This document shows positions 3,931-55,898 of a stretch of 64,000 nt of DNA, piece after piece. The position numbers and the translations under genes are program-made. Where the stretch lies: positions 1,917 through 65,916 of IMG/VR virus record IMGVR_UViG_3300042346_000266; one strand, written 5' to 3'. A model generated the notes under the pieces. That model was given only the letters and a program-made list of their open reading frames with translations, made no database searches and was not told the DNA's origin. Positions within the stretch are counted from its first letter, which is position 1, and every line of letters begins with the position of its first letter. Source of the stretch: a virus (lineage: Duplodnaviria > Caudoviricetes).

Positions 3931-6900
3931 TTATCCCATCTTTCTTTTCTTTTTTTCTTCTCTACGCTTTTTAGCATCTTCTCTACGTTTTAAAGCCGCT
4001 GCTCTTTTTATAGCTATTCTTTCTTTTAATGGCAATGCTCTAATAGAGTCTTTTGTTCTCTGTCTTGTTTCCTTAGCTTTTATTTTACCAGCTTCTTTTC
4101 TAAATGCTTTAGCTTCTTCTCTTATTTTAATATCACCAGCCGGTTCTTCTATACCAAGACTAATTGAATTCCATCCTAATAAAAGAGCAACTCTTTGCCA
4201 TGCGTCATGTTGTGAATTCATTGCTTGCGAAACATTCTCAATTTTATTAACTAAACGGTCAGCTGGTGCTCCTATTCCAGCTTCTATTAGTTTACCAGTA
4301 ACAGAATACATAGGACCTAAATGAACTCTACCATCTTGCATAACATCCCAACCGCGTTTTTCTATAAGATCTTTTTCAAACTTTGTTTGCTGTAATGCTG
4401 AGTAAACTTTACGCGCTTTTGATCCTATTGGAGGTGATATATTTAAACCTTCTAAAACAACTTTAGCATAGTCCGCTTTATAATCTTTAGCTTTTTCATC
4501 TAGGTATTTAACGGCCATGTTTTTAAGCGTAGCTACTATTGCACCATAATATCCAGTACCACGTAAGATAGAATCTAATACACCATTAGCAACATCAATA
4601 GCTCTGTCTTCTGTTGTTTTTGGTTTTGACTTTTTATCTTTTTCTTTGTATTTTTCTTCTTCTTCATCATCGCCAAAAATTACAGCAAATAAACCTTGTT
4701 GTAAAGCAGAGAACATTATATTCTGGATAGCTAAGTAGTAAATTATCTTTGAAACATGCGTTTTAGCATTACCCCTACCATTCTTTAAATCTAGAAACGA
4801 TTTTTTAACAATACGTGATTGTTGCATTGCTGTATTTTGGAATGTTAATAATAACCTACCAGCTGGACTTGCTTGCTGTTGTGATATATCTCTTGGATCA
4901 CCTGACTGCTGTGTTTCATCTGATACTTTTGTAAAATCAGTCCATGCTTTATCTTCCGCTTCTTCCTTAGTTAATCCTTCTTTTAAATATGAATTAATTC
5001 TATTTCTATAAAATGGCGCGCCTCCAGAAGCAATAGCAAAACTATCCGCTAATTGTGTTGGAGCATAACCTTTCTTTAATAACCAGGATATAACAGCAGA
5101 AGCTTTGTTTTTACTACCTGCAGCAGCATTAGCTATTTCAGATGCCGCAACATCTTCTTTAAGGCCACCTCTTCTTTCCTTCATTTTATCTGAATTCCAT
5201 ATAGTGGCAAAGTCTTCCCAATATTGTTTTTGATTAGCAAAAGCTTTACCTGCAGCAACAGGGTTATTGTCTCTTAAGTTTAGAAAGTTAACCGCTCCTA
5301 GTAATTGCAAGGATGCTGATCTAATATTCAAGAACATAATATTACCAGTAGAATTATTTACCCAGTTGCTCCAAGCATTAGTACCCTTATCTTTTCCATG
5401 ACTTCTATTTTTACCAGTTGTCATTCTATAAAGAACATCTTCAATAGCTTCTCTAGTATCTGTTCCATATAGAGCTTCTACTTTATTCATATTAGGACCA
5501 ACTAATCTACCCTGTTCCCATTTACCAAAGATTTCCTCGTAATTAGCAATGAACTCTTCCAAGAACTTCTTTCTACCATTACCTTCTGTAAGACCGTGTA
5601 GATCAGAAATGATTGTACTTGAATCCCAATTAGCCTCAGGCTTAATCCAGTCTTTACCTTGCTTACCAGTTATAAGCAATCCATTTTTAAATGCAGTTAA
5701 ATCAGGATCATTATTAACAAAGTTGCTTAGCATTCTTTGATCCTTCTTAGTTAACCCAGGTATCTCTACACCATTTGCATCCCATATTGCAACACGTATT
5801 GCTTGGTCATATGTAAATTCGCTATTTGGTATTAGCTTTTCTAATTCTCCTTTTACAAACGGATATTCCTTTAATAATGCTTTATAATCATTTTTAATTG
5901 ATTGTCTAGCAGCATCTAATAAATCAGTTCCATTAGAATATGGATCAAGCAAAGCTTCTCTAAAAAACTTATATTGTTCCTCACCTCTTTTTCCTTTACC
6001 CAAAAATTTATACAAAAGCAACTCAAAGTCAGCGGCAGAAGGCGGTACATACACGTCAAATATACCCTTACTAGCACCTCTTCTTTTAGCTACAATATCA
6101 GAATATGTAATCATAGGACCTATACCGGTATTCTGTGATATTATTTTATTAAACTGCCCATCTAATGAATTAAAGAATGCAAGTTTTTTCTGTTGCTTTT
6201 CTCCTTTTACATCAAAGTCTTCTAATATTGTTTTTACACCTTTTGAGTTTTTAAACTTATCGCCAGCAATATTAAAATCATTAAATCCTTCGGAGAATTT
6301 ACTAGTAACCCAATCGGCTTTAGCTTGATCCGTATTATCGTCTAATGTGTTTATATTGTTTGCAGGTATGTTAACCCCAACGTTTTGCAATAACACTTGT
6401 ATAGCATTTCCAGATTCCGTTGGCTCTATTGTAACACCAAAACTGCTTTCTGGATCAGTATTATCAAAACCGTCTAATATGTCCTTGTTTTTTGCAACTT
6501 CTGCTTTTACGTCTGTATAATCAAATATAATGCCGTCAAGTTCAAGTTGCATTTGTTGCTTAAGGAATTCTGGTATTGTTAATTTTTTAACTTTACCTTC
6601 TTTGTCTTTATATGAAACTTTCTTTTTTATTTTAGCTAGTCTTTCGTCAATATCTATTACACTTATTTTCTTAGGTTTTGCAACATAAGAAGGTCTAGCC
6701 GCATTCAATACTGCTTTAACTGCTCTTGCTGATATTCTATTTCGTTTTAATAAAGAAGCTTTTCTAATTATTGTTAAGAGTTTCTTTGGTTTATCATGTA
6801 TATCCACCGGTGATTTCTGATCCCAATTTGAAGCCATTTTCGGGAAACCAATAAAATACACATTGACATTCTTATCTTTATCCATAGAGCCTCTTTGAGT

Positions 6901-9900
6901 GGTTATTTCAAAGTTTACATCACCTTCTAAATCTGGCAATATACCTTCAAACTTTGTATCTCCATAAGAGAATGTTCCAACCCCTCCAAATGTAATAGCA
7001 TCATTAGTCCCCCCATTTAATTTTTTTACTAAATCTGCATTAGCACTTATTCTAACTTTAGCTTTTTCTTGTAAAGCCCTAGCCTTAGGGTCTTTAAATA
7101 CTTCTATAGGTACTTTTATATTACCATTAGCGACTATCTCACCTCCATTTTCTAACAGGTAATCAGTGTATGCTTTAATATTAGGATCATTTTTTAAAGT
7201 TTCAGCTATAACATCATTTATACCAGTATCTTTATTAATTGTTGGGTTTGTAGTTACATTATTTATAACTACACCTTTTAGTCTTGAATCTTTATCTAAT
7301 TTTAATTCAAAGTTATATGTATTCTTTTTATACTCTATCTTTAAATCAGTCAATTTAGATGTTGATGTCGATGCAACTTTACTAACTAACTTAAATCTAT
7401 TTATTTTACTAAGTACTTTTTCAACTGGATCTTCTAAAGCAGATATTATTTTATTTTTAAAATCAAACTCTTTATTTTCTAAGTCAATAACTTTTAAATA
7501 TTTTCTTAATTGTTTTATAGACTTTTCTTGTAGCACATTTGTTACATATTCAGAATCTTCTTTTGACAAACCAGATACGAACTTCTTATAATCTTCATTA
7601 TTTAAATCCCATTCATTTTTACTAAGAACAGTAAGAACTTCTCTAGCTACCTTTTTAGATTGCTTAACATTACCACGTTCAGCTTGTCTCGCTATTTCTG
7701 CAGATAAAGTTTCAAGTACCTCAACACCTTTTCTTTCTTGATTTGTTTTTAACGCATCAAATATAGGACCTTCATTTGCAAGGTCATCTAATACAATATC
7801 AAAAGCAGCTTCTTCAGCAATTACCTTTGCTAAAGACTCTTTCCTACCTCTAATAGGATTACCATCAGGGCCAATGATTTGATCAAGAAAATCTGCATCT
7901 GAAATGTTATTTGCTACATTCGGTAATCTTCTAACTAATTCATGCCCAGCTGTTCTTCCAGCGTTATCTGTACTAACAGATTCTCTGTCAATTTTTTTAC
8001 CAACCCATTCAGGAAAATTTGTCCATTTACCATCTATACGTTTTTGAATAGCAATAGGCATACCGCCTTGGCCATCCTTACCCATTAACCAAGTGGTAGT
8101 CATATTTTCAAGAATATACTTTTTGTTTTTCAATAACCAATTTTTTAATTGATCATCTTTTTTGCCACCCATTACCGTCTTAACATCAATGTCTGCTTGT
8201 TTACCAATCTCATCCCTAATTTCAGCTATTAATGGAGTTACAGTACGGTTTAATGTAATAGGAGCATCAATTCTAGACTTTAAAGTTCTAATTACAGTAA
8301 TTATCTTGTTATTTATTGTTTCTAAGGTCTCTGGTTCAAAAACTTTTGATTCTAATGCGTTTTTATACTTTGGTTTTTCTACTGTTCTAGCAGTCATGTT
8401 TTGATCTGCAGTTTCTGTAGCCATTATACCAACCTCTTCTGTAACATCTTTACTAAATTCTTTTCCTAAAATCCTCCTAGACGTAGCTATTGCTCTAACT
8501 GGCAAGTATTTATTAATATAAGCAGCCAATGGAACTCCTGATTCAGGTTTATATTTAGTTATTAAGTCTAAGATACCACCAACGCCAGTTTCTATTTCAT
8601 CTGTTAGTAATTCTCTATCAAAGTCTGGAGCATCTCTACGTTTATCTACAATACGGTTAGTTATAGGTCTAAATAATTTGATAATTTCATCTGCTCCATT
8701 TCTACCTTTTTCATTATATATTTTTTGCACTTTATCAGATGATATAGATGCTTTTTCTTCTCTTATTATTTTTTTAAGTGCATTTTCCTCATCATCTTCT
8801 TGCTCCTCTTTTGTTTTTTCTTTTTTAACAACCTCTTCTTTTACAGGTGCTTTTTCAATTAGCTTTTCGGCGGTTTTTATTTTGCGTTCTATGTTAGCTT
8901 TTTTAGCAGTATATTCTGCCTCTTCCATATCGCCATAGCCTTCATCATATTCATCCTCAAGATCTTGCAATTCTTTAGTTAGACTTTCGACCTGAGCTTT
9001 TGATGATTTTATATCTTGTTTTGTTGTTTCCTCTGTGATCTCACTAGCCGGTTTTTTATATATACCTTCTTTTGTTAATCTTTCAAATGCTTTATTACCT
9101 GTGCCTTTTTTAAATGTTTTATTATAGTCTTTAACAAAATTAAATACATCTTCTCCTGTTTCAAAACTAATATTTTTAAAACCATATCGTTGTAATAATC
9201 TTCTTACTATATCACCTATTTTAGTAAAAAAAGTTTCATTGTATTTTATATCTCCATTATTTAAAGATTCAGATAATAATGGCAAAACCTCTTCTAGGTA
9301 TTTTCCTTCCTCTTTTGCTAAATATTTTTCAGATACAGATATAACTTTATTATATTCATCTTCAGTTATAGCGCCATTATCTAAATTATTTTTTGCATTT
9401 TTTATAGCTGTACTAGCCTTACTCTCGGCCTTCTCAAAATCTTTTTTATAACCTATATATCTTTTTTGGAATTCAGTTTTGCCCAAAACTTCAGTTCCCA
9501 GTGTTTTTTCAATATGGTTATATAGTTCTGTACCAATCTTTTTTTGTAACTCAGTATTATTTTTTACAGCGTTAAATATTACTTTATGTAAAAATTCATG
9601 TTGCCCAGTAGTAACTACTCCGGTCATTTCCGCTACTTCTTGATTTACTATTAATGCTTCCTTTCCATTTTTTAAAGGTATAAATATACCGGCACTATCA
9701 GAGTAATCTTCAATATCTCTTTCAGTTAAACCTAATTTCTCTAAATCAGCATTTTCTTTTATATAATCATATACAGCTTTACTATCTTTTAAATCAGGAA
9801 TATCTGTTGTTTCAGTTATTCCAATTGCTTCTGCCATTTTTTTTGTAAGTTCAACGTCTGTTGAAATAGCTTCTCGCAAAGAAATATCACGTAATTCACT

Positions 9901-12396
9901 TTTTATTTCTTCTAGTCTTTTTAATTCTGGAACAATTAGATCTTTATCTTTACTTTGTACCTCTTTTTCAATATTAGTTTTTTCTAGCATTAAATTTACA
10001 GCCTTTTCTTTGCTCTCTGCTGAAAATTTAGATGGTATTTTTAATCCAGAACTTCTTATAGTAGATAATGTTTCAATTTCTTTTTCTTTGTCTTCTAAAG
10101 TAATATCCCCAACTTTAAACCTTTCTTCTATATTATTTTTAGCGGCTTTAAAAAAGTTATCTATTTGTAGTCTGTTTGAAACCGTAGTATCACCTAAAAA
10201 ACTAGGCCTTGCCATGTCGAGCATAGATGCAGCTTTTATAGCGGAAGCTCTCAATTCAATTCCTGTTTGAGTAGCAACAGTTCCTGCAAAAGGAAAAACA
10301 GCACCTACAATACCTCCGGCTTTTGCATCTATAGCCATCTCGTTAAAGTTTACATATTTTCTGGCGTCCTGATCAAGTTGTAGCCCCATACTAACTTGGT
10401 CAATACCCTTTTGTAAACCTTCTGTTAAATACTCTCCTAATGCTGACGAGGCTATATTTTTGCCAGAACCAAGTATTGATTTACCAAAGTTTTTAATTTC
10501 ACCTCTAAATAGAGAGCCTAATACTTTATTTGCATCGTTGCCAAGACCTAATGCTTTACCCGTGTTTTTTAATACATTTAATTGAGAAGCATACTCAAGC
10601 CCAACGGAAATAGCTGAAAAAGCGGCGGCCTCTGCTCTATTAGCATATTTACCATTTCCAATTGCTTCTGCAATCTCTTTTTCAGATGGAGCTTTACCTA
10701 AGTCTTCCGATAACCCTTTCACAATGGTATCATAGTATTGAGACCCATATGTTTGAGTAAACATATTAGCCGTGCCTAATCCTATTAACAATGGATTACC
10801 AGTAACTGTTCCAGTTGCCGTAATTGCTAGATTCGGTGTTTGTTCAGCGACTAGTTGTAGTACATCATCTAATTGTATACCGTTTTTTAAATCTGCTTCA
10901 TTAAATAAACCTGTATACTCTTTTGTCTTTTCTATAGATTTAACTCTATCCCTAATTAAAGAGCTTGTTTTATCTAAATATTTTTTTACTCTATTTTTAG
11001 CTTCGCCGTATGTTTTAGGTACATCTTGTTCTTTAGGATCATATACATTTAATTCTTTAAGTTTCCATTCAGCGCTAAAGGATTTATCGATAGGAGCATT
11101 GTCAGGCTTGTCCTTAATGGTAGAATAAATATTATTAAGGGTTGCAATACTATTTTGATTCGATGATGCTAATGATTCCTTTACTCCTAATATTATATTT
11201 TGTGTGCCTTTTACCGCCCCTTCTTCTATAATAGCTCCTTTTTTAGCAATTGTACCTATCATTCCAGGAACACCGCCAACTTTTTCTAATTCACCGCCTA
11301 ATTCCTTTTGAATATCTATAGTACCCAAAATTACATCTTTACTTCTGCTGTATTCTTTATCCAGAATACTTGTTGCCTCCTCTTGAATGTTTGAAAAATT
11401 TTTATTTAACTCTTTAAAGCCGGAAGAATTTATTAGAAAGTTTGTTACTGTTTTTTCAAAATAATTTTTTAATTCTATATTTGCTTTATCTACAGACTCC
11501 TGAGTATTTAATGAATATTTTTTCTTTATTTCTGCTATTTTGCTATTTATTAATGGCCTTGCTTTAGCTAATGCATAATCTTGTTCAAATTTAAAGGATG
11601 GATCCTTAGATACAATATTTTTAACATTAAGTTCAATTGCTTTATTTAAGTCACTTTTTGTTTTAAATTTTTTAGGATCTATATCTTGCGTCACCATTTC
11701 TATAGCCTCTTGTTTTGGAGCATTATAAAAAGAATTAGTAGACTTATCGTATTTTTTCTCAATATAGCTTGGCTTTGCTACCATTTTAGAAACAAATAGT
11801 GCTCTTTCCTCTAGCGGATAATCTTTAAGAAACTCAAATTTACCAGAAGCATTCATAGCGTTCTTTGAGTCTTGAGCAAAAGATATTTGCTGGTCTCTTA
11901 TAGGTGTTTGATCATAATATGTTAATTTGCCTTCTTCTGCTTTTTCTTTGCTAGGAAATAAATCTTTTACATAGTCGACTAGATCGTCAAACATTGTAGG
12001 TTCCTCATAGCTTTTTGGCACCTGATAGCCTCTGGCATCAAGTTTGTATTCTATTCTTTCTGGCTTCTTTTTTGCTTTTGGTTCTTTTACTTCTGTAACC
12101 GCTTGCAGATTACCTAGAAAAGAACTTTTAATCTTATCTTCACCAAAAATATTATCTTGAGATACCGATGAAGGTTTTACCGATTTGGATGCCGTACTTT
12201 TTGGTTTCCCTGCTGTTACAGCACCCTTTTTTACAGCAGGCCTCGGCTTTCCCGGCGGTTCAATAGTAGTTTCATCTTCTATTCTTTTAATACCAAATTT
12301 ATTAATATATGTGTCAATATCGAGCCCTTTTTCTTGAGCTTTAGACAATACTTCTTCTTCTGAAAAATCAACTCCGTTATAATTGTATATAGGCAT
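3931..12396 (-). CDS. giant virion/ejection polyvalent protein (zincin HEFLH, sigma-2-like, PD-(D/E)xK, degenerate HAD segments)
   Basis: 2821 aa; last gene of the structural operon after two ejection-type genes; motifs read from the translation. Confidence 0.7.
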   Translation of the reverse strand: MPIYNYNGVDFSEEEVLSKAQEKGLDIDTYINKFGIKRIEDETTIEPPGKPRPAVKKGAVTAGKPKSTASKSVKPSSVSQDNIFGEDKIKSSFLGNLQAVTEVKEPKAKKKPERIEYKLDARGYQVPKSYEEPTMFDDLVDYVKDLFPSKEKAEEGKLTYYDQTPIRDQQISFAQDSKNAMNASGKFEFLKDYPLEERALFVSKMVAKPSYIEKKYDKSTNSFYNAPKQEAIEMVTQDIDPKKFKTKSDLNKAIELNVKNIVSKDPSFKFEQDYALAKARPLINSKIAEIKKKYSLNTQESVDKANIELKNYFEKTVTNFLINSSGFKELNKNFSNIQEEATSILDKEYSRSKDVILGTIDIQKELGGELEKVGGVPGMIGTIAKKGAIIEEGAVKGTQNIILGVKESLASSNQNSIATLNNIYSTIKDKPDNAPIDKSFSAEWKLKELNVYDPKEQDVPKTYGEAKNRVKKYLDKTSSLIRDRVKSIEKTKEYTGLFNEADLKNGIQLDDVLQLVAEQTPNLAITATGTVTGNPLLIGLGTANMFTQTYGSQYYDTIVKGLSEDLGKAPSEKEIAEAIGNGKYANRAEAAAFSAISVGLEYASQLNVLKNTGKALGLGNDANKVLGSLFRGEIKNFGKSILGSGKNIASSALGEYLTEGLQKGIDQVSMGLQLDQDARKYVNFNEMAIDAKAGGIVGAVFPFAGTVATQTGIELRASAIKAASMLDMARPSFLGDTTVSNRLQIDNFFKAAKNNIEERFKVGDITLEDKEKEIETLSTIRSSGLKIPSKFSAESKEKAVNLMLEKTNIEKEVQSKDKDLIVPELKRLEEIKSELRDISLREAISTDVELTKKMAEAIGITETTDIPDLKDSKAVYDYIKENADLEKLGLTERDIEDYSDSAGIFIPLKNGKEALIVNQEVAEMTGVVTTGQHEFLHKVIFNAVKNNTELQKKIGTELYNHIEKTLGTEVLGKTEFQKRYIGYKKDFEKAESKASTAIKNAKNNLDNGAITEDEYNKVISVSEKYLAKEEGKYLEEVLPLLSESLNNGDIKYNETFFTKIGDIVRRLLQRYGFKNISFETGEDVFNFVKDYNKTFKKGTGNKAFERLTKEGIYKKPASEITEETTKQDIKSSKAQVESLTKELQDLEDEYDEGYGDMEEAEYTAKKANIERKIKTAEKLIEKAPVKEEVVKKEKTKEEQEDDEENALKKIIREEKASISSDKVQKIYNEKGRNGADEIIKLFRPITNRIVDKRRDAPDFDRELLTDEIETGVGGILDLITKYKPESGVPLAAYINKYLPVRAIATSRRILGKEFSKDVTEEVGIMATETADQNMTARTVEKPKYKNALESKVFEPETLETINNKIITVIRTLKSRIDAPITLNRTVTPLIAEIRDEIGKQADIDVKTVMGGKKDDQLKNWLLKNKKYILENMTTTWLMGKDGQGGMPIAIQKRIDGKWTNFPEWVGKKIDRESVSTDNAGRTAGHELVRRLPNVANNISDADFLDQIIGPDGNPIRGRKESLAKVIAEEAAFDIVLDDLANEGPIFDALKTNQERKGVEVLETLSAEIARQAERGNVKQSKKVAREVLTVLSKNEWDLNNEDYKKFVSGLSKEDSEYVTNVLQEKSIKQLRKYLKVIDLENKEFDFKNKIISALEDPVEKVLSKINRFKLVSKVASTSTSKLTDLKIEYKKNTYNFELKLDKDSRLKGVVINNVTTNPTINKDTGINDVIAETLKNDPNIKAYTDYLLENGGEIVANGNIKVPIEVFKDPKARALQEKAKVRISANADLVKKLNGGTNDAITFGGVGTFSYGDTKFEGILPDLEGDVNFEITTQRGSMDKDKNVNVYFIGFPKMASNWDQKSPVDIHDKPKKLLTIIRKASLLKRNRISARAVKAVLNAARPSYVAKPKKISVIDIDERLAKIKKKVSYKDKEGKVKKLTIPEFLKQQMQLELDGIIFDYTDVKAEVAKNKDILDGFDNTDPESSFGVTIEPTESGNAIQVLLQNVGVNIPANNINTLDDNTDQAKADWVTSKFSEGFNDFNIAGDKFKNSKGVKTILEDFDVKGEKQQKKLAFFNSLDGQFNKIISQNTGIGPMITYSDIVAKRRGASKGIFDVYVPPSAADFELLLYKFLGKGKRGEEQYKFFREALLDPYSNGTDLLDAARQSIKNDYKALLKEYPFVKGELEKLIPNSEFTYDQAIRVAIWDANGVEIPGLTKKDQRMLSNFVNNDPDLTAFKNGLLITGKQGKDWIKPEANWDSSTIISDLHGLTEGNGRKKFLEEFIANYEEIFGKWEQGRLVGPNMNKVEALYGTDTREAIEDVLYRMTTGKNRSHGKDKGTNAWSNWVNNSTGNIMFLNIRSASLQLLGAVNFLNLRDNNPVAAGKAFANQKQYWEDFATIWNSDKMKERRGGLKEDVAASEIANAAAGSKNKASAVISWLLKKGYAPTQLADSFAIASGGAPFYRNRINSYLKEGLTKEEAEDKAWTDFTKVSDETQQSGDPRDISQQQASPAGRLLLTFQNTAMQQSRIVKKSFLDLKNGRGNAKTHVSKIIYYLAIQNIMFSALQQGLFAVIFGDDEEEEKYKEKDKKSKPKTTEDRAIDVANGVLDSILRGTGYYGAIVATLKNMAVKYLDEKAKDYKADYAKVVLEGLNISPPIGSKARKVYSALQQTKFEKDLIEKRGWDVMQDGRVHLGPMYSVTGKLIEAGIGAPADRLVNKIENVSQAMNSQHDAWQRVALLLGWNSISLGIEEPAGDIKIREEAKAFRKEAGKIKAKETRQRTKDSIRALPLKERIAIKRAAALKRREDAKKRREEKKKRKMG

Positions 12397-48456: not shown

Positions 48457-48491
48457 TTACAATCTCAATACGATCAGTAATTGATAATATA
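48457..48491 (+). promoter_or_regulatory. early promoter-like repeat 1
   Basis: TTACAATCTCAATACGATCAGTAATTGATAATATA. Confidence 0.75.
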
Positions 48492-48533
48492 TCTGAAGTT
48501 AAATATTAATAATAATAATTAAATAATTAAATT

Positions 48534-48707
48534 ATGCTAAATTTATCTAAATCTGAAATTACAACGCTTTACTGTTCGCTATCGACGACAACAGCAAATT
48601 TAAAAATGCAATACGAATCGATCGATATCCAATCTGATATGCAATCGCATTTGCTTTATCTGACTGAATTACAAAATAAATTATTATTAGCTTTAATCGA
48701 GCAATAA
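48534..48707 (+). CDS. 57-aa early hypothetical protein
   Basis: Hand-called ORF MLNLSKSE... after repeat 1. Confidence 0.6.
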   Translation: MLNLSKSEITTLYCSLSTTTANLKMQYESIDIQSDMQSHLLYLTELQNKLLLALIEQ

Positions 48708-48711
48708 TAAT

Positions 48712-48746
48712 TTACAGTCTGAACACTAGATTAAAATGATAATATA
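48712..48746 (+). promoter_or_regulatory. early promoter-like repeat 2
   Basis: TTACAGTCTGAACACTAGATTAAAATGATAATATA. Confidence 0.75.
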
Positions 48747-48788
48747 GTTGAATATAAATAATAATAATAACTAAATAAATAAATTAAA

Positions 48789-48968
48789 ATGTTAAAATTA
48801 AAAATCAATCAGAATTTCAAGTCTTTAATTAATTCAATATTAATTAATTCAAACAAACTGAATCATTCGTTTTATATATTAAACGACAATTTAATAATAA
48901 ATAAAAACGATCTAGACGAAGTAGATAATATACTGAACAGAAATTTTTATAAATATTCTATCAGATAG
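48789..48968 (+). CDS. 59-aa early hypothetical protein
   Basis: Hand-called ORF MLKLKINQ... after repeat 2. Confidence 0.55.
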   Translation: MLKLKINQNFKSLINSILINSNKLNHSFYILNDNLIINKNDLDEVDNILNRNFYKYSIR

Positions 48969-49037
48969 ATAATAATAATAACCTAGTCAAGTTATAAAAC
49001 TGACTATATTAAATAATAACTAAATAAATAAATAATC

Positions 49038-49271
49038 ATGAAATTAACAGAAAAAGATTTACAGACTACAGTTGAAACATTAATAACAGAAAGTAATTAT
49101 GGCGCTAATCAAGAATTTAAAATAACAGAAGAACTAGAAGAATGGATAGCTGATCAATCTGGATTATTAAGAAATTATGACACTGTAACAGAACAATATA
49201 CAGAATCCATAACAGAATGGTTGTTTAGAATATATGACTTCTTTGAATATAATATATTTGAAGTAGAATAA
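49038..49271 (+). CDS. acidic early hypothetical protein
   Basis: ORF with A-rich leader. Confidence 0.65.
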   Translation: MKLTEKDLQTTVETLITESNYGANQEFKITEELEEWIADQSGLLRNYDTVTEQYTESITEWLFRIYDFFEYNIFEVE

Positions 49272-49278
49272 ATAAATC

Positions 49279-49302
49279 AAGGATCCTAGTAATAGGATCT
49301 TT
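49279..49302 (+). terminator. hairpin terminator candidate
   Basis: AAGGATCCTA-GTAA-TAGGATCTTT. Confidence 0.55.
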
Positions 49303-49340
49303 GTATGTATAGCATTGCGTATAGCATCCGTTAGATCTAT

Positions 49341-49375
49341 CTACAGTCTAGATACGACGAGTATTTGATAATATA
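49341..49375 (+). promoter_or_regulatory. early promoter-like repeat 3
   Basis: CTACAGTCTAGATACGACGAGTATTTGATAATATA. Confidence 0.75.
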
Positions 49376-49434
49376 GATGTAAGTAACAAAATAATAATAA
49401 TAACAAAATAATAAATTTAATAAAATTATAGTTC

Positions 49435-49469
49435 TTACAGTCTGAACACTAACAGTAATTGATAATAAT
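49435..49469 (+). promoter_or_regulatory. early promoter-like repeat 4
   Basis: TTACAGTCTGAACACTAACAGTAATTGATAATAAT. Confidence 0.75.
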
Positions 49470-49505
49470 GATGAATCTAATTAATAACAACTAAAAATTA
49501 AAACT

Positions 49506-49724
49506 ATGAATGTAAACAAAGAATTATTAAAAAGAATTGAAGATTTAAGATCTTTTTGTGAAGTACATGGATTTCCATTACATGAAGTACTTGAAGAAGA
49601 ACTCGAGTATTATAGAAAAGATATACTAACGAGATTTTCAAAAACAGTCTTTGACATGATCCCGGTAACTGATGAACATTTCAGAATGATCGAAGTAGAA
49701 TATGAAAGCTACTTACAAGACTAA
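49506..49724 (+). CDS. early hypothetical protein
   Basis: ORF after repeat 4; stop lies within repeat 5. Confidence 0.65.
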   Translation: MNVNKELLKRIEDLRSFCEVHGFPLHEVLEEELEYYRKDILTRFSKTVFDMIPVTDEHFRMIEVEYESYLQD

Positions 49725-49747
49725 TACGAATAGTAATTGATAATAAT
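49713..49747 (+). promoter_or_regulatory. early promoter-like repeat 5
   Basis: TTACAAGACTAATACGAATAGTAATTGATAATAAT. Confidence 0.7.
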
Positions 49748-49783
49748 AATGTAATTAATAATAATCTAATAAATAATAAAATC

Positions 49784-50161
49784 ATGAACAAATTTAAAAA
49801 AGAAAAAGTAGAAGTAGTTGAAGTTGTAGAAGTAGTAAAAACTTCAAAAGAATTAATCTCTGAAGCTATCTCGAAGCTCAGTCCAGAAGAGCTAGCTGTT
49901 ATCTATCCGCCGATCGAAAGAGCTAACTTTGTAGTCAGAAAGTCTTGGCTAGGACGTAATCAAGTGATAACATTCGTTAATAACAAGAATCAACGAATAA
50001 CTTACAATCACGACGAAGTACTAAGAATTATGCTACCGAAGCTATCTATAATGCCATGTTGGATCAAACGTGAGTACTGGTCACAATCGACGGATATGCC
50101 AAGTAATGTTAGACACTTAGCTAAAGTAGAAAATTTGGATGTAGTTGAGGTGGCCGAATAG
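49784..50161 (+). CDS. early hypothetical protein
   Basis: ORF after repeat 5. Confidence 0.7.
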   Translation: MNKFKKEKVEVVEVVEVVKTSKELISEAISKLSPEELAVIYPPIERANFVVRKSWLGRNQVITFVNNKNQRITYNHDEVLRIMLPKLSIMPCWIKREYWSQSTDMPSNVRHLAKVENLDVVEVAE

Positions 50162-50170
50162 GCCCCTCTT

Positions 50171-50205
50171 CTACAACCTAAGTACGAAGTAGAAACGATA
50201 ATAAT
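50171..50205 (+). promoter_or_regulatory. early promoter-like repeat 6 (divergent)
   Basis: CTACAACCTAAGTACGAAGTAGAAACGATAATAAT. Confidence 0.6.
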
Positions 50206-50227
50206 AATGAATCTAAAAACAAATATC

Positions 50228-50581
50228 ATGAATAAAGAATTTAAAAATCTATACCTAGGAACAATTCTAGGTATGTTAGCTGGATCAATTGCAACAGCGT
50301 TAGTGCTATACACAGATAATGCAAAAGAAGTCCCTAAAGAGCCTGTAATCATCTGGAATGATGATGAAGAGTCAATACCTATGGATCACTCAGCTATAAT
50401 GCTAGAGTTTACTAAGAATGATACCATATACATCGGACCTATGGAAGACCCATCAGAGTCACCAGAGTATCAATTTATAGTGACTGACGACTCTATATCA
50501 GTCAAAGACTTCAATAGACACGTTGGTACAGTAAAAATCGAAGGACAATTAAGAAACCTAATAAATAAAGATAATGAATAA
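50228..50581 (+). CDS. early membrane-anchored hypothetical protein
   Basis: N-terminal TM segment; second ATG preferred given the promoter position. Confidence 0.65.
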   Translation: MNKEFKNLYLGTILGMLAGSIATALVLYTDNAKEVPKEPVIIWNDDEESIPMDHSAIMLEFTKNDTIYIGPMEDPSESPEYQFIVTDDSISVKDFNRHVGTVKIEGQLRNLINKDNE

Positions 50582-50590
50582 ATAAAAAAG

Positions 50591-50636
50591 TGTGACGTTA
50601 GCCTACTATTAACCTAATTAAGTACCTAATGTCACA
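50591..50636. repeat. TGTGAC-N34-GTCACA element B
   Basis: TGTGACGTTAGCCTACT...GTCACACTTT. Confidence 0.8.
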
Positions 50637-50760
50637 CTTTATGATGGAATTTTAGTGCTATACACACGGCCTGACCTTGAAATAGAGTCGGAAGAGTAGA
50701 CTCCGACCTACTTTATAGTTAAAGTTGCTATACACAAACAGGTGAACGATCAAAATATAG

Positions 50761-50806
50761 TGTGACGTTAGCCCTTTACTTATTTACTTAATTAGCTTAT
50801 GTCACA
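50761..50806. repeat. TGTGAC-N34-GTCACA element C
   Basis: TGTGACGTTAGCCCTTT...GTCACATTTT. Confidence 0.8.
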
Positions 50807-50879
50807 TTTTATACTCAAACTATCCTTATTTACCGCGAGGGGGTACCCCGAGCGTGTATAGCATCCTCGCGTTACACTT

Positions 50880-50914
50880 TTACAGTCTAAATACGACCTC
50901 AATTTGATAATATA
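50880..50914 (+). promoter_or_regulatory. early promoter-like repeat 7
   Basis: TTACAGTCTAAATACGACCTCAATTTGATAATATA. Confidence 0.75.
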
Positions 50915-51039
50915 TGTGTAACAAACAATAAATAATATGATTTAAAAGTGTCCTGAGTGTTTTATAACACACTGTAAATGAAGATGTTAGGGGTTATACC
51001 CATCTAACTATATTTTCGATCAAATAAACAACCACCTGC

Positions 51040-51074
51040 TTACAGTCTGGTTACGACCTTAAAATGATAATATA
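51040..51074 (+). promoter_or_regulatory. early promoter-like repeat 8
   Basis: TTACAGTCTGGTTACGACCTTAAAATGATAATATA. Confidence 0.75.
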
Positions 51075-51105
51075 AGTGTAACAATAACAAGTAAATACAA
51101 CAATT

Positions 51106-51204
51106 ATGAGACAGTATTCCAATGCTATTAGGGTGATAGTATTAAAACTTAAAAAAGGCTTCTTAAATGGCGCTAAAAACGCTTCTATTGCGATGCGAAA
51201 CTAA
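51106..51204 (+). CDS. 32-aa basic peptide
   Basis: Hand-called ORF MRQYSNAIRV... directly after repeat 8. Confidence 0.45.
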   Translation: MRQYSNAIRVIVLKLKKGFLNGAKNASIAMRN

Positions 51205-51230
51205 TTAATTAACAACTTAAATTAAAAATT

Positions 51231-51464
51231 ATGACTAGATTAGAGTGGTTTGACTTACAACCGGAGTATGTTCAAAATAAAATTAAAGATAACTGTAGCA
51301 TATTTAATAGAACTAATGATTTCTTTGATTATTGGGTTAATTTAAAAAATAATAGTGGATTGATGGGTGCATTTGCGTTCTCTGATACTATTGAAGGTTG
51401 GGATTTCTGGTATGATATCCATGTTAAAATGATTGAATGTAGTAAATTTATTAAAGTATGTTAA
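51231..51464 (+). CDS. early hypothetical protein
   Basis: AF.FSDT.EG.DFW motif. Confidence 0.65.
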   Translation: MTRLEWFDLQPEYVQNKIKDNCSIFNRTNDFFDYWVNLKNNSGLMGAFAFSDTIEGWDFWYDIHVKMIECSKFIKVC

Positions 51465-51640
51465 GTGACTGTTGTGGTGCATATTCCGAGTATGCCGATG
51501 ATATAGATATTTGTCCTGATTGTTTAGAGCATTGTGAGTTTTATGATGAGGATGAAGAACTATGCGAGCATGACTTTATACCCGTAAACAATGACGGAAA
51601 ACATAAATGCAGATTTTGTAATGAATTAGAAAACAATTAA
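51458..51640 (+). CDS. small Cys-rich zinc-finger-like protein
   Basis: SDCCGA...CPDCLEHC...C.H...C..C. Confidence 0.65.
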   Translation: MLSDCCGAYSEYADDIDICPDCLEHCEFYDEDEELCEHDFIPVNNDGKHKCRFCNELENN

Positions 51641-51644
51641 AATT

Positions 51645-51809
51645 ATGAAAGAGTATAAAATAGAAATTGTAGAAACCATTTGTAGAATAGTTACCGTTGA
51701 AGCACAATCTGATGAAGAGGCAATGAGTAAAGTTAGGGACGATTATAACAATGCTGAAATTGTTTTAGATTACGACGATTTTCTAGATGTAGAATTTAAT
51801 TTTATATAA
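51645..51809 (+). CDS. DpnD/PcfM-like small protein
   Basis: Hand translation MKEYKIEIVETICRIVTVEAQSDEEAMSKVRDDYNNAEIVLDYDDFLDVEFNFI. Confidence 0.7.
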   Translation: MKEYKIEIVETICRIVTVEAQSDEEAMSKVRDDYNNAEIVLDYDDFLDVEFNFI

Positions 51810-51811
51810 TT

Positions 51812-52030
51812 ATGGAACATGAAATCATAGAATATTGTAACCCTTGCTTTCCTGATATTCCTTATTATAGGTGTACTATTAAAGGTGAAACATATCATCA
51901 CACCGATCTTAGTAAGATAGTTGATTGGCGTCAAGATAGAATTATTAATGCTAATAAATATGCGAAAATGAAGCAATCAAATGACGAAGCAATGGCATTG
52001 TTTATGGAGGATGTAAAGTTTAAAGATTAA
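51812..52030 (+). CDS. early hypothetical protein
   Basis: ORF in packed operon. Confidence 0.65.
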   Translation: MEHEIIEYCNPCFPDIPYYRCTIKGETYHHTDLSKIVDWRQDRIINANKYAKMKQSNDEAMALFMEDVKFKD

Positions 52031-52031
52031 C

Positions 52032-52066
52032 TTACAGTCTTAACACGTACCTACTTTGATAATATA
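52032..52066 (+). promoter_or_regulatory. early promoter-like repeat 9
   Basis: TTACAGTCTTAACACGTACCTACTTTGATAATATA. Confidence 0.75.
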
Positions 52067-52090
52067 AATGTAACCAATAAATAATAAATT

Positions 52091-52279
52091 ATGAAATTAA
52101 CGTTAAAAAGATTTGAGGCTTTAGTTATATTAGAGTCGTTAGATATTTTATATGACCAACATTCTTCGTTATATAATGATGCTTTGGAAGCTAAAGACAA
52201 ACAACAAATACGTAGAGTATTACACACTATGCTGGCTATTGAAGAGATCCAAGGGGAAATCAATTTAAAACTTAAATAA
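52091..52279 (+). CDS. early hypothetical protein
   Basis: ORF after repeat 9. Confidence 0.65.
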   Translation: MKLTLKRFEALVILESLDILYDQHSSLYNDALEAKDKQQIRRVLHTMLAIEEIQGEINLKLK

Positions 52280-52288
52280 TAATATACC

Positions 52289-52471
52289 ATGAAAAAATCA
52301 ATCAAGTTTCTTAAGAACAATTTAATCCTAGTAGGCGGCGTGCTATACACACCTTACCTCATTGGCGATCTACCACCTAGTTTTGCTTTCATCTACAGTG
52401 AAGATCAAGATACCGACGGCATCCGTGAGTGGTTCAATTTTAAAGGTTTAACCTATATAATCAAGAAGTAA
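52289..52471 (+). CDS. early hypothetical protein
   Basis: Packed ORF. Confidence 0.65.
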   Translation: MKKSIKFLKNNLILVGGVLYTPYLIGDLPPSFAFIYSEDQDTDGIREWFNFKGLTYIIKK

Positions 52472-52472
52472 T

Positions 52473-52721
52473 ATGATAACAATAGCGAACAACATGAAAG
52501 AAGCGTGTCAATATCTTGAAGAAAAGAAAGCACGTAACAGAGCTAACCGTATAAATGCAGTTAATACTGATGGCATGTGTAAAAGTTTTACTAATGAAGA
52601 CTATAAGCAAGTAAAGATCAAAATGAAATCATCATACGGTGCAAAAGCGAAAGCACATAGCCGTAGTGCATACTGGAACCATTACCACTTAACTAAACAA
52701 GAACTAATAAACAAATATTAA
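52473..52721 (+). CDS. early basic hypothetical protein
   Basis: Packed ORF. Confidence 0.65.
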   Translation: MITIANNMKEACQYLEEKKARNRANRINAVNTDGMCKSFTNEDYKQVKIKMKSSYGAKAKAHSRSAYWNHYHLTKQELINKY

Positions 52722-52740
52722 TATTAAAACAAAAGAAATT

Positions 52741-52989
52741 ATGAGTGTAAGATTAAAAATAGAAAACGCAGATGAATTAATACAAATGAGAGAATTGCAA
52801 GACGGGCAAATAGCAATCATTGTAGGGTCTGGTTATAACGGTAGAATAGTACAAAGATATAAAGATTATGGAGTGCCAATTGGTAGACATTCAGGTCAGG
52901 GATGGACAAGTATTGAAAACAATACTCTACCAGTTAGGGTATTAACCACCGGTGAATTAATAGAAGTATTCGATAATGTTCAAGAATAA
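52741..52989 (+). CDS. early hypothetical protein
   Basis: Packed ORF. Confidence 0.65.
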   Translation: MSVRLKIENADELIQMRELQDGQIAIIVGSGYNGRIVQRYKDYGVPIGRHSGQGWTSIENNTLPVRVLTTGELIEVFDNVQE

Positions 52990-53197
52990 ATATATTGCAA
53001 TGCGCAATCAAGGTATTATAGATGCTCAATTGTTATATATTTATGCTATAGATAAAGGCTTTAAATATGGAATTAATGAATTTATAATTTGCTTAAACCA
53101 CTCCGATATAACATACATAATTAATATACTTGATAGCGAATTTGAATTAACTAGACTATACGATAAAAACGATAAATTCATAAAAATAATAAAATAA
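52976..53197 (+). CDS. early hypothetical protein
   Basis: Packed ORF. Confidence 0.65.
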   Translation: MFKNKYIAMRNQGIIDAQLLYIYAIDKGFKYGINEFIICLNHSDITYIINILDSEFELTRLYDKNDKFIKIIK

Positions 53198-53198
53198 T

Positions 53199-53366
53199 AT
53201 GGAAAATAATAATTCAGCATTTCAAGATACATTAGCATTCGAAGTATGGATGCGCGACACAATAAAATCCGTACATTATGCAGACAACAATAGAATGGCG
53301 GAAGCTTACGATAGAGTATTTAATAACAGTATTGAATTAAAATTATATGAGAGTGCTAAGCGATAA
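53199..53366 (+). CDS. 55-aa early hypothetical protein
   Basis: Hand-called ORF MENNNSAFQD... filling the gap. Confidence 0.6.
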   Translation: MENNNSAFQDTLAFEVWMRDTIKSVHYADNNRMAEAYDRVFNNSIELKLYESAKR

Positions 53367-53568
53367 AGAATCAAATTTAATTAAGTTAGCAGTATATGAG
53401 GGTATTGACAAGATCTCCGATAGATTATGGACTGACTTTAAAATCTGTGAATCCAAATTAACGTCATTACAAGTTAATAGGTTCAATGAATTTGAAGATC
53501 TGCTATACACGTTTCTTTGTGAGCTCGCCGAAGATCACGGTGTCTTACAGTCTCAATACGACCAATAA
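53347..53568 (+). CDS. early hypothetical protein
   Basis: ORF ending inside repeat 10. Confidence 0.65.
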   Translation: MRVLSDKESNLIKLAVYEGIDKISDRLWTDFKICESKLTSLQVNRFNEFEDLLYTFLCELAEDHGVLQSQYDQ

Positions 53569-53579
53569 TTGATAATATA
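53545..53579 (+). promoter_or_regulatory. early promoter-like repeat 10
   Basis: TTACAGTCTCAATACGACCAATAATTGATAATATA. Confidence 0.75.
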
Positions 53580-53604
53580 AATGTAACCAATAAAATATAA
53601 TATA

Positions 53605-54003
53605 ATGGAAAAAATTAATGACCTATTTGACCAAGAAATAATCCGTGTAAACGACTCTTTCCCAAGTGTATATACTAAAGACGATGTTATACATTTATTA
53701 AGCACATTGCGCACTCAAACACTATATGAAGCCGCAGAATTAAAATCAACATCTACCATAAGCGAAAAGTTGTTCACTGAATTTCAAACTAAAGTTAGAG
53801 ATGAAATGGAAGAGTATTTAAATATGAATGACCATAACTTAGTCGTTTTCGATAGTGCTGAATTTAATTTAAATTATAATAATGTTGTAGAATTAGAGCG
53901 AGTAGATATTAATGTAGACGATATTTCAGAAAAATTAGATGATGTAATGTTAAAATATATTGAAAAAGTATTTGGTAATTTATTAATCTTAGACCAACAA
54001 TAA
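53605..54003 (+). CDS. acidic early hypothetical protein
   Basis: ORF after repeat 10. Confidence 0.7.
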   Translation: MEKINDLFDQEIIRVNDSFPSVYTKDDVIHLLSTLRTQTLYEAAELKSTSTISEKLFTEFQTKVRDEMEEYLNMNDHNLVVFDSAEFNLNYNNVVELERVDINVDDISEKLDDVMLKYIEKVFGNLLILDQQ

Positions 54004-54004
54004 T

Positions 54005-54250
54005 ATGGCAAAAGTAAAAAACAGTAGTACAGAAGTTCCTAAATGGTTTGATGGTAAAATATATCCAACAGGGCAACTTGTAACAAATCCGTTTTCAGGT
54101 GATACTGTTGCACTAAACAATATAGAAACAAGCATATATGATTTTATTATAGGGGTTGCTTATTCAGGTAAATACCATAAAAATTTTGATCGTGCTAGAT
54201 ATTGGTTTGCTGAAGTAAACTCTGAAGCTTATATGAAATTATTAGACTAA
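54005..54250 (+). CDS. conserved-looking phage hypothetical protein
   Basis: V.NPFSG...IYD.I.G...WF...N.EAYM.LLD pattern. Confidence 0.7.
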   Translation: MAKVKNSSTEVPKWFDGKIYPTGQLVTNPFSGDTVALNNIETSIYDFIIGVAYSGKYHKNFDRARYWFAEVNSEAYMKLLD

Positions 54251-54264
54251 TTAAAAAAAACAAT

Positions 54265-54702
54265 ATGAACTTAACAAACTTAGTAGATGAATTAGGATTA
54301 ACTGGCGGGTTCAGTTATAATATAACAACTGGTGAATCAACACCTTCCAATGGCTATATGGTTAGCTTACACGGCTATGAAATGGTTATACCATCTGATA
54401 TATTCCATGCTAAAGATATTAGAGACTACGTAAGCAACAATGCAGCTCAATTATACAGAGAAGATCTGTTTATGGGCGGCTGGATAAAAGATGATAAAGT
54501 ATACTTAGATGTAAGTGTTAATATACTTGACCTTGAAACCGCAGTGTATACTGGTATGGTTAATAACCAACAAAGCATATATGACGTTGTTAACAAAATA
54601 TCATTAATGTTGCCATCCCCTCAGCGATCTGGTACTATGTCTCAAAATCGTACGTATAACGCAAGAAAAGCTAAAGACTTTGCAAATAATTATATACTAT
54701 AA
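54265..54702 (+). CDS. hypothetical protein (G.W....VYLDVS...NQ.SIYD family)
   Basis: ORF with a recurring phage motif. Confidence 0.65.
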   Translation: MNLTNLVDELGLTGGFSYNITTGESTPSNGYMVSLHGYEMVIPSDIFHAKDIRDYVSNNAAQLYREDLFMGGWIKDDKVYLDVSVNILDLETAVYTGMVNNQQSIYDVVNKISLMLPSPQRSGTMSQNRTYNARKAKDFANNYIL

Positions 54703-54950
54703 TGGATTTAGATTTAGTTGAAAAATTGAATATTGAGAGTAGTTCAATATCTGAAGCATCATATTATCCTAATGTTAGAAGACTATTTGTAACATTTAGA
54801 AGCGGGAAAGAATATGAATATTTTAATGTTCCTGAACATGTTGTTAATGAATTTAGATATGCACCATCTAAAGGCAAATTTCTAAAGAAACATATTATAG
54901 CTTGTTATAAATTTAAGAAAGTACAGTTGCTATACACTCCGGATTTGTAA
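54702..54950 (+). CDS. KTSC domain protein
   Basis: SS.I....Y......L.V.F.SG..Y.Y..VP......F..A.SKG.F....I. Confidence 0.85.
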   Translation: MDLDLVEKLNIESSSISEASYYPNVRRLFVTFRSGKEYEYFNVPEHVVNEFRYAPSKGKFLKKHIIACYKFKKVQLLYTPDL

Positions 54951-54957
54951 GCAACTA

Positions 54958-55131
54958 TAATGACCTGTACCCTTGAAATACTCATTCAGATAGCAGGTTA
55001 GTTCGAAATAAAAGGGTAATAGAATAAGAACAAAATGTTGATCATCTGGGGTTACGTAAAGTTTGCCGGAACGGATCCAAGGTTGTAACCAAAATGCGTA
55101 TAAGAGAAAAACCGGTTCGCAGATCAACAAA
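54958..55131 (+). ncRNA. candidate structured ncRNA(s): pseudoknot plus multi-stem junction
   Basis: No plus-strand ORF; GC-elevated; several 6-8 bp complementary segments. Confidence 0.45.
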
Positions 55132-55132
55132 A

Positions 55133-55223
55133 GAACTAAGCGTGGGCTAAATTGATACAGTGGCTTAAGTTATCATGGCATGCAACCGACGGGTTAAGGG
55201 GTTCGATTCCCCTTTTAGTTCCA
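55133..55223 (+). ncRNA. tRNA-like RNA (canonical T-arm and acceptor stem, atypical D/anticodon region)
   Basis: GAACTAAG/TTTAGTTC stem ending ..CCA; AGGGG-TTCGATT-CCCCT T-arm; AACC-GACG-GGTT variable-arm-like hairpin. Confidence 0.6.
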
Positions 55224-55235
55224 AAATTTATTATT

Positions 55236-55394
55236 ATGAGTAGAACAGTAAAACAAGCATACAGAAAGTCTAGAGCTTTTGATAAGTCATGTAGAAATCA
55301 TGGTAGTTGTGCATATTGTACAGGCAATAGATTACATAAACATAACAAAAAGTTAGAAGCAACAACTTACAGTCTAAACACGATAGACGATTGA
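55236..55394 (+). CDS. 52-aa basic Cys/His protein
   Basis: Start reassigned to MSRTVK; D.SCRNHG.C.YC..NR motif. Confidence 0.7.
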   Translation: MSRTVKQAYRKSRAFDKSCRNHGSCAYCTGNRLHKHNKKLEATTYSLNTIDD

Positions 55395-55401: not shown

Positions 55402-55423
55402 AGTGTAACCAATTAAATTATAT

Positions 55424-55897: not shown

Positions 55898-55898
55898 T

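Follow-up and report, generated by a model that had tools for sequence, protein, structure and literature searches.

How does a phage obtain its first transcripts when its early genes stand behind a private class of promoters and no RNA polymerase (RNAP) of its own can be found? The locus that raises this question belongs to a phage of Flavobacterium-like bacteria and lies in a stretch of 64,000 nucleotides (the window), bases 1917-65916 of the 65,916-bp virus record IMGVR_UViG_3300042346_000266, which encodes on its minus strand a giant protein of 2821 amino acids (aa), P0001. An earlier note, made from the letters alone, had proposed that this protein carries a module resembling region 2 of sigma-70, injected with the DNA to direct host core RNAP to the early promoters until a second, free sigma took over. 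In this study, we find that aa 1215-1310 very probably form a genuine, very divergent sigma-2 domain of the sigma-70 family. Together with a disordered linker and a second domain, here called X, it would make up the cargo block that is best conserved in a giant polyvalent protein. That this sigma-2/X block has a role in starting early transcription is a possibility that we advance with clear reserve.

The sigma-2-like domain of the giant protein

Two features are needed at the outset:
3931..12396, minus strand: giant open reading frame (ORF) P0001 (2821 aa; from the ORF list and its translation), last gene of the late/structural operon and a candidate ejected polyvalent protein
8467..8754, minus strand: sigma-2-like helical domain (aa 1215-1310), delimited by an AlphaFold2 (AF2) model, VIA-align, a profile search of the PDB, the ESM Atlas and hhalign

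The 75-residue peptide in which region 2 had been recognised by eye occurs exactly at aa 1234-1308 (window 8473-8697, minus strand; given in the earlier note as aa 1233-1309 and 8470-8700). Its likeness to sigma-70 region 2 lies above chance by profile, fold, language-model features and hhalign, with the Pfam model silent. A hidden Markov model (HMM) built from 29 diverse copies of the domain (profile A7) was run against 177,635 PDB sequences; the best match was 8b3z_A, an "RNA polymerase sigma factor" (SigE N-terminal domain; E 6.2e-4, 23.3 bits), and 14 of the 25 matches at E<=10 were sigma factors, every one aligned in region 2 (SigB at 0.029, SigA at 0.065-0.11, RpoS at about 1). The alignment to sigma factors includes the signature K-F-N/D-P-E-K...L-A-x-Y, and K-F/Y-D/N-P ... 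L-x-x-F/Y-I ... L-x-x-R is retained in all sequence types of the domain, of which there are at least 30 at under 55% identity. Diversity of the profile mattered: neither single-sequence searches of the region (Pfam, PHROGs, PDB sequences) nor a 10-sequence profile (A1) against the PDB returned a sigma, and sigma factors were reached only by the more diverse 29-sequence profile. When the domain profile was compared by hhalign with the family of the phage's own free sigma, aa 1233-1308 paired with residues 31-117, the Pfam region-2 span (P 3.1e-4), against P 0.33 for a reversed template and 0.5 for domain X. Similarly, the ESM-Atlas features of aa 1206-1320 scored 0.96 to viral clusters in which 14% and 63% of members carry PF04542.

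The structure model points the same way. AF2 modelling of aa 1190-1602 from a 42-row alignment, in which model residues 26-121 correspond to aa 1215-1310, predicts a helical domain at model residues 6-121 (predicted local distance difference test, pLDDT, about 90), then a disordered linker (122-150) and, beyond it, a second domain. Among 48,161 representative chains compared by VIA-align, ranks 1-13 were sigma-2 domains or chains of RNAP initiation complexes (Z 6.4-7.9), with 80-97 residues aligned and model residues 26-121 covered. SigB 8x6g_H came first (Z 7.9, root-mean-square deviation (rmsd) 2.6, 86 residues), followed by 7d7d_F, a 137-aa chain of the T4 gp45-dependent activation complex (Z 7.3, rmsd 3.0, 90 residues); sigma-32 (7.0), pro-sigma-K (6.9), regions 1.2-2 of RpoS (6.8) and sigma-28 (6.7) also scored. 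About 27 of the top 50 matches were sigma factors or initiation-complex chains, and 3ugo_A was among the matches. The sigma-2 structural match foreseen in the earlier note is therefore found in VIA-align ranks 1-13 and falls short of significance in Foldseek, where sigma chains filled about 20 of the 45 rows shown (E 0.3-2.6); as an internal control, they were absent from the Foldseek rows when domain X was searched alone.

Several of these results count against so close a kinship. No Foldseek E-value was significant, and helical Z scores under about 13, those of 5-8 included, can reflect a common helical-bundle arrangement. Pfam Sigma70_r2 (PF04542; gathering cut-off 24 bits) gave no match even at E<=10 for the giant protein or a 367-aa piece of it, and matched none of 19 family members and none of 7 short relatives or fragments; the domain fails Pfam family membership as set by the cut-off. 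The -10 melting and recognition residues of regions 2.3-2.4 in Escherichia coli sigma-70 are F419, Y430, W433, W434, Q437 and T440. By the gapless A7 register, the F419- and Y430-like aromatics are Y1282 and Y1293, kept in all types, and R1301 is nearly invariant; the W433/W434 positions hold K/Y, S/R or G/R, so that of the region 2.3 aromatics only the Phe-419-like and Tyr-430-like ones are kept and the Trp pair is not. Could the domain, then, be a chance or convergent helical bundle with no evolutionary or functional link to sigma factors? The silence of Pfam, VIA-align Z scores below 8 and Foldseek E-values above 0.1 would suit such an origin, as helical bundles often score middling. Yet four kinds of test (HMM against the PDB, structure ranks 1-13, language-model features and hhalign) agree on both family and register, the controls were negative, and the most conserved signature of region 2 is present in every sequence type. 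We regard a chance bundle as very improbable.

A sigma-2 domain is the module that meets the beta-prime clamp helices of core RNAP, and this contact was addressed by co-folding the A7 domain with residues 215-345 of Flavobacterium johnsoniae RpoC. Scores of 0.51, 0.51 and 0.56 were obtained, graded as "weak support", against 0.01 for the best of three controls; agreement between the runs extends to at least 66% of contacts, with a partner pLDDT of at least 71. In the calibration, 58 of 80 solved complexes attained the mark, as did 2 of 110 mismatched pairs; scores of 0.60 or less comprise 7 of the 80 solved complexes and both passing mismatches, counts that hold roughly here since an alignment of our own was used. 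Because sigma-2/clamp-helix complexes have already been solved, the docking pass may reflect likeness only. The docking on Flavobacterium clamp helices envisaged in the earlier note obtains a weak score, well above its control and within a zone that mismatched pairs share. We would put the chance that the sigma-2-like block binds host core RNAP slightly above even.

A conserved block in a candidate ejected protein

The domain opens a block that continues through the linker and domain X, flanked by other parts of P0001:
8365..8466, minus strand: linker (aa 1311-1344), predicted disordered (model residues 122-150 have pLDDT <50), in which the short motifs A-x-E-T ... E-K-P-x-Y-K are conserved
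7666..8364, minus strand: domain X (aa 1345-1577), an orphan fold, very conserved and rich in invariant Lys/Arg/Gly/Thr
7657..7680, minus strand: E-R-G-N-V-K-x-S motif (aa 1573-1580), a candidate processing site on the C-terminal border of the conserved block
9586..9600, minus strand: HEFLH zincin-type metal-binding motif (aa 933-937), found by regular expression
4117..6111, minus strand: second conserved block (aa 2096-2760) with a hydrophobic segment, from the conservation profile

The block recurs across a very large family. A search with aa 1190-1640 retrieved 1498 proteins at E<=0.001 among 8000 candidates scored, which is a lower bound; the 120 matches listed are 63-90% identical in the block and 1.9-3.3 thousand aa long. 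An exhaustive phmmer search of 1.84 billion representatives gave 459 clusters (50% identity) at E<=0.001, 255 of them at E<=1e-30, and among the 150 clusters listed, fragments aside, the members are giant proteins with the match near residue 1000-1500. In a conservation sample of 27 homologues (every fourth one over 2300 aa), most of the length is 13-35% identical to P0001, against 64-86% for aa 1201-1550, 43% for the 1551-1600 window and 50-86% for aa 2101-2800; the best 50-residue window (0.86) contains the peptide of the earlier note. The sigma-2-like part is present in 221 of 261 stored family proteins, X in 244 and both in 211, in a sample biased by its collection. Free-standing small relatives were also sought with A7. 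The 19 matches (46-223 aa) include one fragment with the source label "specialized sigma subunit"; those inspected look like pieces of giant genes, P0386 beginning inside the zincin-side region, and P0384 and P0386 lie on 42-kb and 64-kb contigs.

Within the block, conservation is uneven. The L007-like type of the sigma-2-like domain is 19-22% identical to that of the window over aa 1215-1310, with X 57-73% identical; across family types, X is 57-89% identical where the sigma-2-like part is 19-93% identical. Modelled alone, X reached an AF2 pLDDT of 85.2 and a predicted template modelling score of 0.80. A wide VIA-align search gave a best Z of 4.2 (DpnI) and none of 5 or more, with no sigma-3, sigma-4 or enzyme fold in the rows listed, several weak rows being small DNA-binding helical domains; Foldseek against PDB and BFVD returned nothing at E<=0.001, and hhalign against the free sigma gave P 0.32. 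For this modelled domain no match was found, and a new fold is not claimed. In the linker, A136, E138, T139, E150, K151, P152, Y154 and K155 (A1 numbering) are invariant in 10 sequences, including the divergent L007 and L008 types; a disordered linker with such residues could be a short linear motif for a protease or for touching RNAP. At the far edge of the block, R1574, K1578 and S1580 are invariant in 35 sequences, and V[KR]xS stands at the block-edge column in 20 of the 35 and at about aa 2072 in 9. From this pattern we infer that the protein may be cleaved at the ERGNVKxS edge.

What kind of protein carries the block? The minus-strand operon ahead of the giant ORF encodes a terminase, a P22-like portal, several PHROG "virion structural protein" families and GroEL/GroES-like proteins. 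A tblastn search with the portal points to Flavobacterium Elemovirus (42%), podoviruses of Cellulophaga and Tenacibaculum, and the metagenomic MW202828.1 (51.5%) as the nearest named phages, and both Elemovirus and MW202828.1 hold a gene of 3.7-3.9 thousand codons at the same operon position. An HMM of 35 family members matches Elemovirus gp18 over residues 15-1100, the N-terminal third (E 3.9e-32), and in its HEIFH region, with the central and C-terminal blocks unmatched. The 3859-aa protein of MW202828.1 gave E 2 over the whole protein, which is not significant, and 5.6e-6 for the best stretch, with HExxH motifs present; like gp18, it is without the sigma-2/X and C-terminal blocks. In P0001 the zincin reported in the earlier note is found again, with HEFLH at aa 933; H933, E934, H937 and E1036 are invariant among 35 diverse family members. 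The assignment is at motif level, as a single-sequence search of the region gave no Pfam match and nothing below E 0.2 among PDB sequences. Given the N-terminal homology and synteny with gp18 and the invariant HExxH, the giant protein looks like an ejected polyvalent protein.

For the second conserved block (aa 2096-2760), the ESM Atlas places LPD39 (28% of members, score 0.95) and LPD38 (0.93) nearest among named clusters, a lead only; the single sequence found nothing below E 0.2 in the PDB. No Pfam LPD domain was found in P0001 or in 3 + 5 relatives; these 8 further family members gave only weak DUF6934 matches and one weak DUF3425 match. Between the two blocks, at aa ~1900-2050 (window ~6250-6700), the family consensus displays an intact HAD-like pattern, DFDDT ... 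LTARP ... FYFxDD; the copy of this phage is possibly inactive, because its first motif reads VIDIDER.

This architecture, a structural-type N-terminal third with a zincin and lineage-specific cargo, fits the polyvalent proteins ejected with phage DNA, as far as these are set out in the main text of Iyer, Burroughs, Anand, de Souza, and Aravind (2017, PMC5512222). We think it fairly likely, judging from homology and gene order, that P0001 is packaged in a podovirus particle and ejected with the DNA. A contrary account denies the block any action on host transcription at entry: the protein would stay behind, or the block would work in the particle or late, on single-stranded or end DNA, in assembly or in late regulation, with the early promoters served by the host sigma and later by the free one. 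Synteny and homology are indeed all the evidence for packaging and ejection; the block is an optional cargo, because gp18 and the giant protein of MW202828 do without it; and sigma-2 domains such as 3ugo_A bind single-stranded DNA. Against this account speak the block's extreme conservation, the confinement of a phage sigma and a promoter class to the lineage, and the place of the gene, last in a podoviral structural operon and combined with a zincin, which again suits ejected polyvalent proteins in the published description (PMC5512222, main text). We consider it rather improbable.

Free sigma, early promoters and the co-variation test

The early region adds two features, both of which the earlier note had listed, the sigma as a second, free factor at 59610 and the motif as repeats at 48457-58723:
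59610..60374, plus strand: free sigma-70-family factor (254 aa; Pfam Sigma70_r2 E 5e-5, 23.5 bits against a cut-off of 24; r4 E 0.018)
48458..58720, plus strand: early promoter-like motif TACAR-N7-AC-N11-GATAAT, 12 copies (exact matches, 0.42 expected)

Searched in frame context with its neighbours, the free sigma reaches 27.2 bits; it is the sole Sigma70_r2 match in the whole record, and many of its homologues carry PF04542 or PF04545. It is unusually conserved: more than 8000 database proteins were scored, and the 120 listed are 80-100% identical, nearly all of exactly 254 aa. One homologue is filed by NCBI under a cyanobacterial metagenome-assembled genome, probably a binning artefact. The motif has a classical two-block promoter shape, with a spacer of 17 bp from CAGTCT to GATAAT, and its final copy precedes a helix-turn-helix gene and the free sigma gene. 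It recurs in 5 of 5 related block-carrying genomes (8-13 copies, on one strand; reverse-pattern controls 0), and the free sigma in 3 of 3 tested. Elemovirus and MW202828.1 are without the sigma-2/X block and the free sigma, and hold the motif at chance level. Block, motif and free sigma are one lineage-specific package. A search of 4 + 2 contigs that are 39-50% complete found no motif, which is uninformative given their incompleteness.

The motif D.DGD / D.D.D is absent from P0001 and from the 2047-aa product of a neighbouring gene (16783-22926); the latter had been tried as a crAss-type RNAP and was rejected, its sole PHROG match being "virion structural protein" and no catalytic motif being present. 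PF00623 is absent from the record (controls 14/14 positive), and PF00940 gave no match, with its own control silent. No RNAP was detected in the protein by Pfam or PHROG, or in the 65.9-kb record; fold modelling covered aa 1190-1602 only. The lack of DxDGD stated in the earlier note holds, and of the double-psi beta-barrel RNAP that it named as a contrary finding there is no trace by motif or by PF00623. As to host-type promoters, the Bacteroidota housekeeping consensus is TTTG-N15-22-TAnnTTTG; the window has 5 such sites against 5.6 expected, none of them in the early region.

A starter role for the block is favoured because the free sigma gene lies behind private promoters, no host-type promoter is visible, and the block is the sole sigma-like element that could be there at time zero; likewise, the conservation of the block, with the sigma and the promoter class confined to the same lineage, points to transcription. 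The sequence of events may be as follows. The giant protein, which also comprises a structural-type N-terminal third, the HExxH zincin, variable modules and a conserved C-terminal block, would most likely be packaged and enter with the DNA. In the cell, the zincin would perhaps excise the sigma-2/X block near the invariant ERGNVKxS edge; the block would dock on host core RNAP, its sigma-2 part on the beta-prime clamp helices, and act as a starter, delivered by the virion, that sets off early-region transcription before any free sigma exists. The free sigma, whose gene lies in the early region behind promoters of the same class, would then take over. Taken as a whole, this virion-delivered starter is the best explanation that we can offer, and we hold it tentatively, as something short of probable. 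More doubtful still is the version in which the starter is a sigma proper, where the zincin-cut block docks on the clamp helices with X replacing sigma-4 and fires the CAGTCT-17 bp-GATAAT promoters, that of the free sigma included, the free sigma serving to amplify.

Other observations weigh against a starter of this kind. The motif, bipartite and with a 17-bp spacer, suits a normal two-domain sigma such as the free one, and no counterpart of sigma-3 or sigma-4 beside the sigma-2-like domain was recognised by Pfam Sigma70_r4, fold searches or hhalign, although the silence of fold searches does not amount to exclusion. "Structural protein" is the depositor's label for gp18 of Elemovirus elemoE (NC_055854.1), and a tblastn search of 50,697 deposited phage records (INPHARED), made with the whole protein and with the block, gave no match, and hence no cultured carrier. 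The most telling result comes from co-variation, examined in two partial genomes (G010 and G011) of one other sequence type. Their sigma-2-like domain is 21-22% identical to that of the window, X is 72-73% and the free sigma 84% and 87% identical, and exact copies of the early motif are kept (3 and 1). The motif thus tracks the free sigma and X, not the variable sigma-2-like domain, and promoter specificity is more simply assigned to the free sigma (or X). Of the earlier interpretation, the sigma-2-type domain, the zincin, the free sigma, the repeats and the absent polymerase stand; the claim that the sigma-2-like module itself reads these promoters is weakened, not excluded. It survives because all types keep the aromatic and Arg positions that, by the A7 register and sigma-70 numbering, match the -11A pocket and the region 2.4 face. 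Moreover, different sigma groups share the clamp helices as their binding site at a region 2 identity of about 20-30%.

The co-variation result favours the main rival, in which the sigma-2-like domain targets RNAP or acts as a decoy. It would dock to displace sigma-A, shutting off the host and freeing core for the free sigma, or to bring X as an effector; the free sigma would read the motif, and the first transcripts would arise by weak recognition through the host sigma. T4 Alt is reportedly injected as well and modifies RNAP. This rival shares with the starter both the sigma-2 homology and the weak docking score, and it accounts for a motif and a free sigma that stay constant while the sigma-2-like domain drops to so low an identity. 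Domain X, for its part, has changed far less than the sigma-2-like part and holds many invariant polar and charged residues, a pattern that PMC5512222 takes in its main text as the hint of an enzyme, and the known transcription-related cargo described there consists of protein-modifying enzymes and an N4-like RNAP. Yet X has no recognisable enzyme fold, the early region offers no host-type consensus to supply the first free sigma, and a pure competitor would not obviously require conserved aromatics of the -10 pocket. We see a decoy or targeting role as unlikely, if seriously to be reckoned with.

Some further features of the window and its relatives may be recorded here. In G010, G011 and a third genome, a near-identical early motif (TACAATC[TA]AAACACGATTGTA...TGATAAT; G010:6651, G011:2882, G012:13102) lies 1.8-2.8 kb downstream of the free sigma gene; the window, unlike these three, has no copy beyond 58720. 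The divergent late and early operons of the window are separated by a gene-free stretch of 425 bp (48032-48457), with GC-rich segments in a genome of 32% GC; it adjoins the first copy of the early promoter as well as an inverted repeat with a long spacer (AGTGTGAC...GTCACACT, 3 copies), and might serve as an origin or regulatory hub or encode a small RNA. In the late region, phage-encoded GroES-like (33408-34016) and GroEL-like (36706-38253) genes are common to Elemovirus and MW202828.1. A 496-aa protein (40170-41660) with DUF4874 and DUF4832 has a weak match to Por_Secre_tail, a type-IX-secretion sorting domain (E 0.0016), a Bacteroidota-type feature that agrees with the inferred host group. 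Finally, CheckV completeness is 62% for the 65.9-kb record and 98-100% for relatives of 63-68 kb; the former looks too low, or the record is short by a few kb.

Known systems and what a sigma-2 cargo would mean

Compared with the sigma-2 domain of sigma-70 factors (regions 1.2-2.4; PF04542), the phage domain has a predicted fold that superposes on SigB, sigma-32, sigma-28, RpoS, SigA and ECF sigma-2, and it keeps the KFDP-like turn and the helix that follows (aromatic-I...L..R). Sigma-70 factors are free proteins of 20-70 kDa, whereas this domain is embedded in a 2821-aa protein of the structural operon, lies below Pfam detection and is followed by an orphan domain. T4 gp55 is a free late protein made in the cell, sigma-2-only, which works with gp33 and gp45 on host core RNAP. 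Factors of this type illustrate how a minimal sigma-2 module can direct host core RNAP in the absence of sigma-4; the phage one, beside which no sigma-4 was recognised and which resembles the T4 chain 7d7d_F in structure, sits in a giant, probably virion-borne protein. Virion RNAPs are reportedly carried by N4 (vRNAP) and by the crAss-like phage phi14:2 (gp66). Like the giant protein, N4- and crAss-like virion RNAPs stand at the end of a podoviral structural module, are associated with a zincin and are proposed to start early transcription after ejection. No polymerase was found in the giant protein, however, and its strategy would be to supply the host enzyme with a specificity or docking factor.

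Polyvalent proteins, as the main text of Iyer et al. (2017, PMC5512222) presents them, are likewise giant and multi-modular, encoded with virion genes and bearing a zincin-type HExxH thought to process them, and their phage versions carry cargo to jump-start transcription, namely RNAP of the N4-like kind as well as enzymes that modify proteins. Their catalogued domains (LPD1-40, MuF, ART and others) were not found in the giant protein by Pfam, the ESM lead to LPD39/LPD38 apart. In the main text of that paper, whose domain tables sit in supplements, the word "sigma" occurs 0 times. A sigma-2 cargo would thus extend the polyvalent-protein catalogue. Full-text literature searches gave no account of a sigma domain in a virion or ejection protein.

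Phages are known to begin early transcription by mimicking host promoters, by injecting an RNAP of their own (N4-like, crAss-like, phiKZ-like) or by injecting enzymes that modify the host polymerase (T4 Alt). These routes are drawn in part from passages of PMC5512222 and PMC7824862. Even as a decoy or targeting domain, the element described here would represent a new architecture for the sigma-70 family, and domain X, confidently modelled, is an orphan domain that probably touches RNAP or promoter DNA. The sigma-2/X block, the private sigma and the private promoters provide a testable system for first transcripts that rely on neither a phage polymerase nor host-like promoters. If true, the starter sigma would join host-type promoters and injected RNA polymerases as a third means by which a very large family of uncultured Bacteroidota podoviruses may set its early genes in motion.

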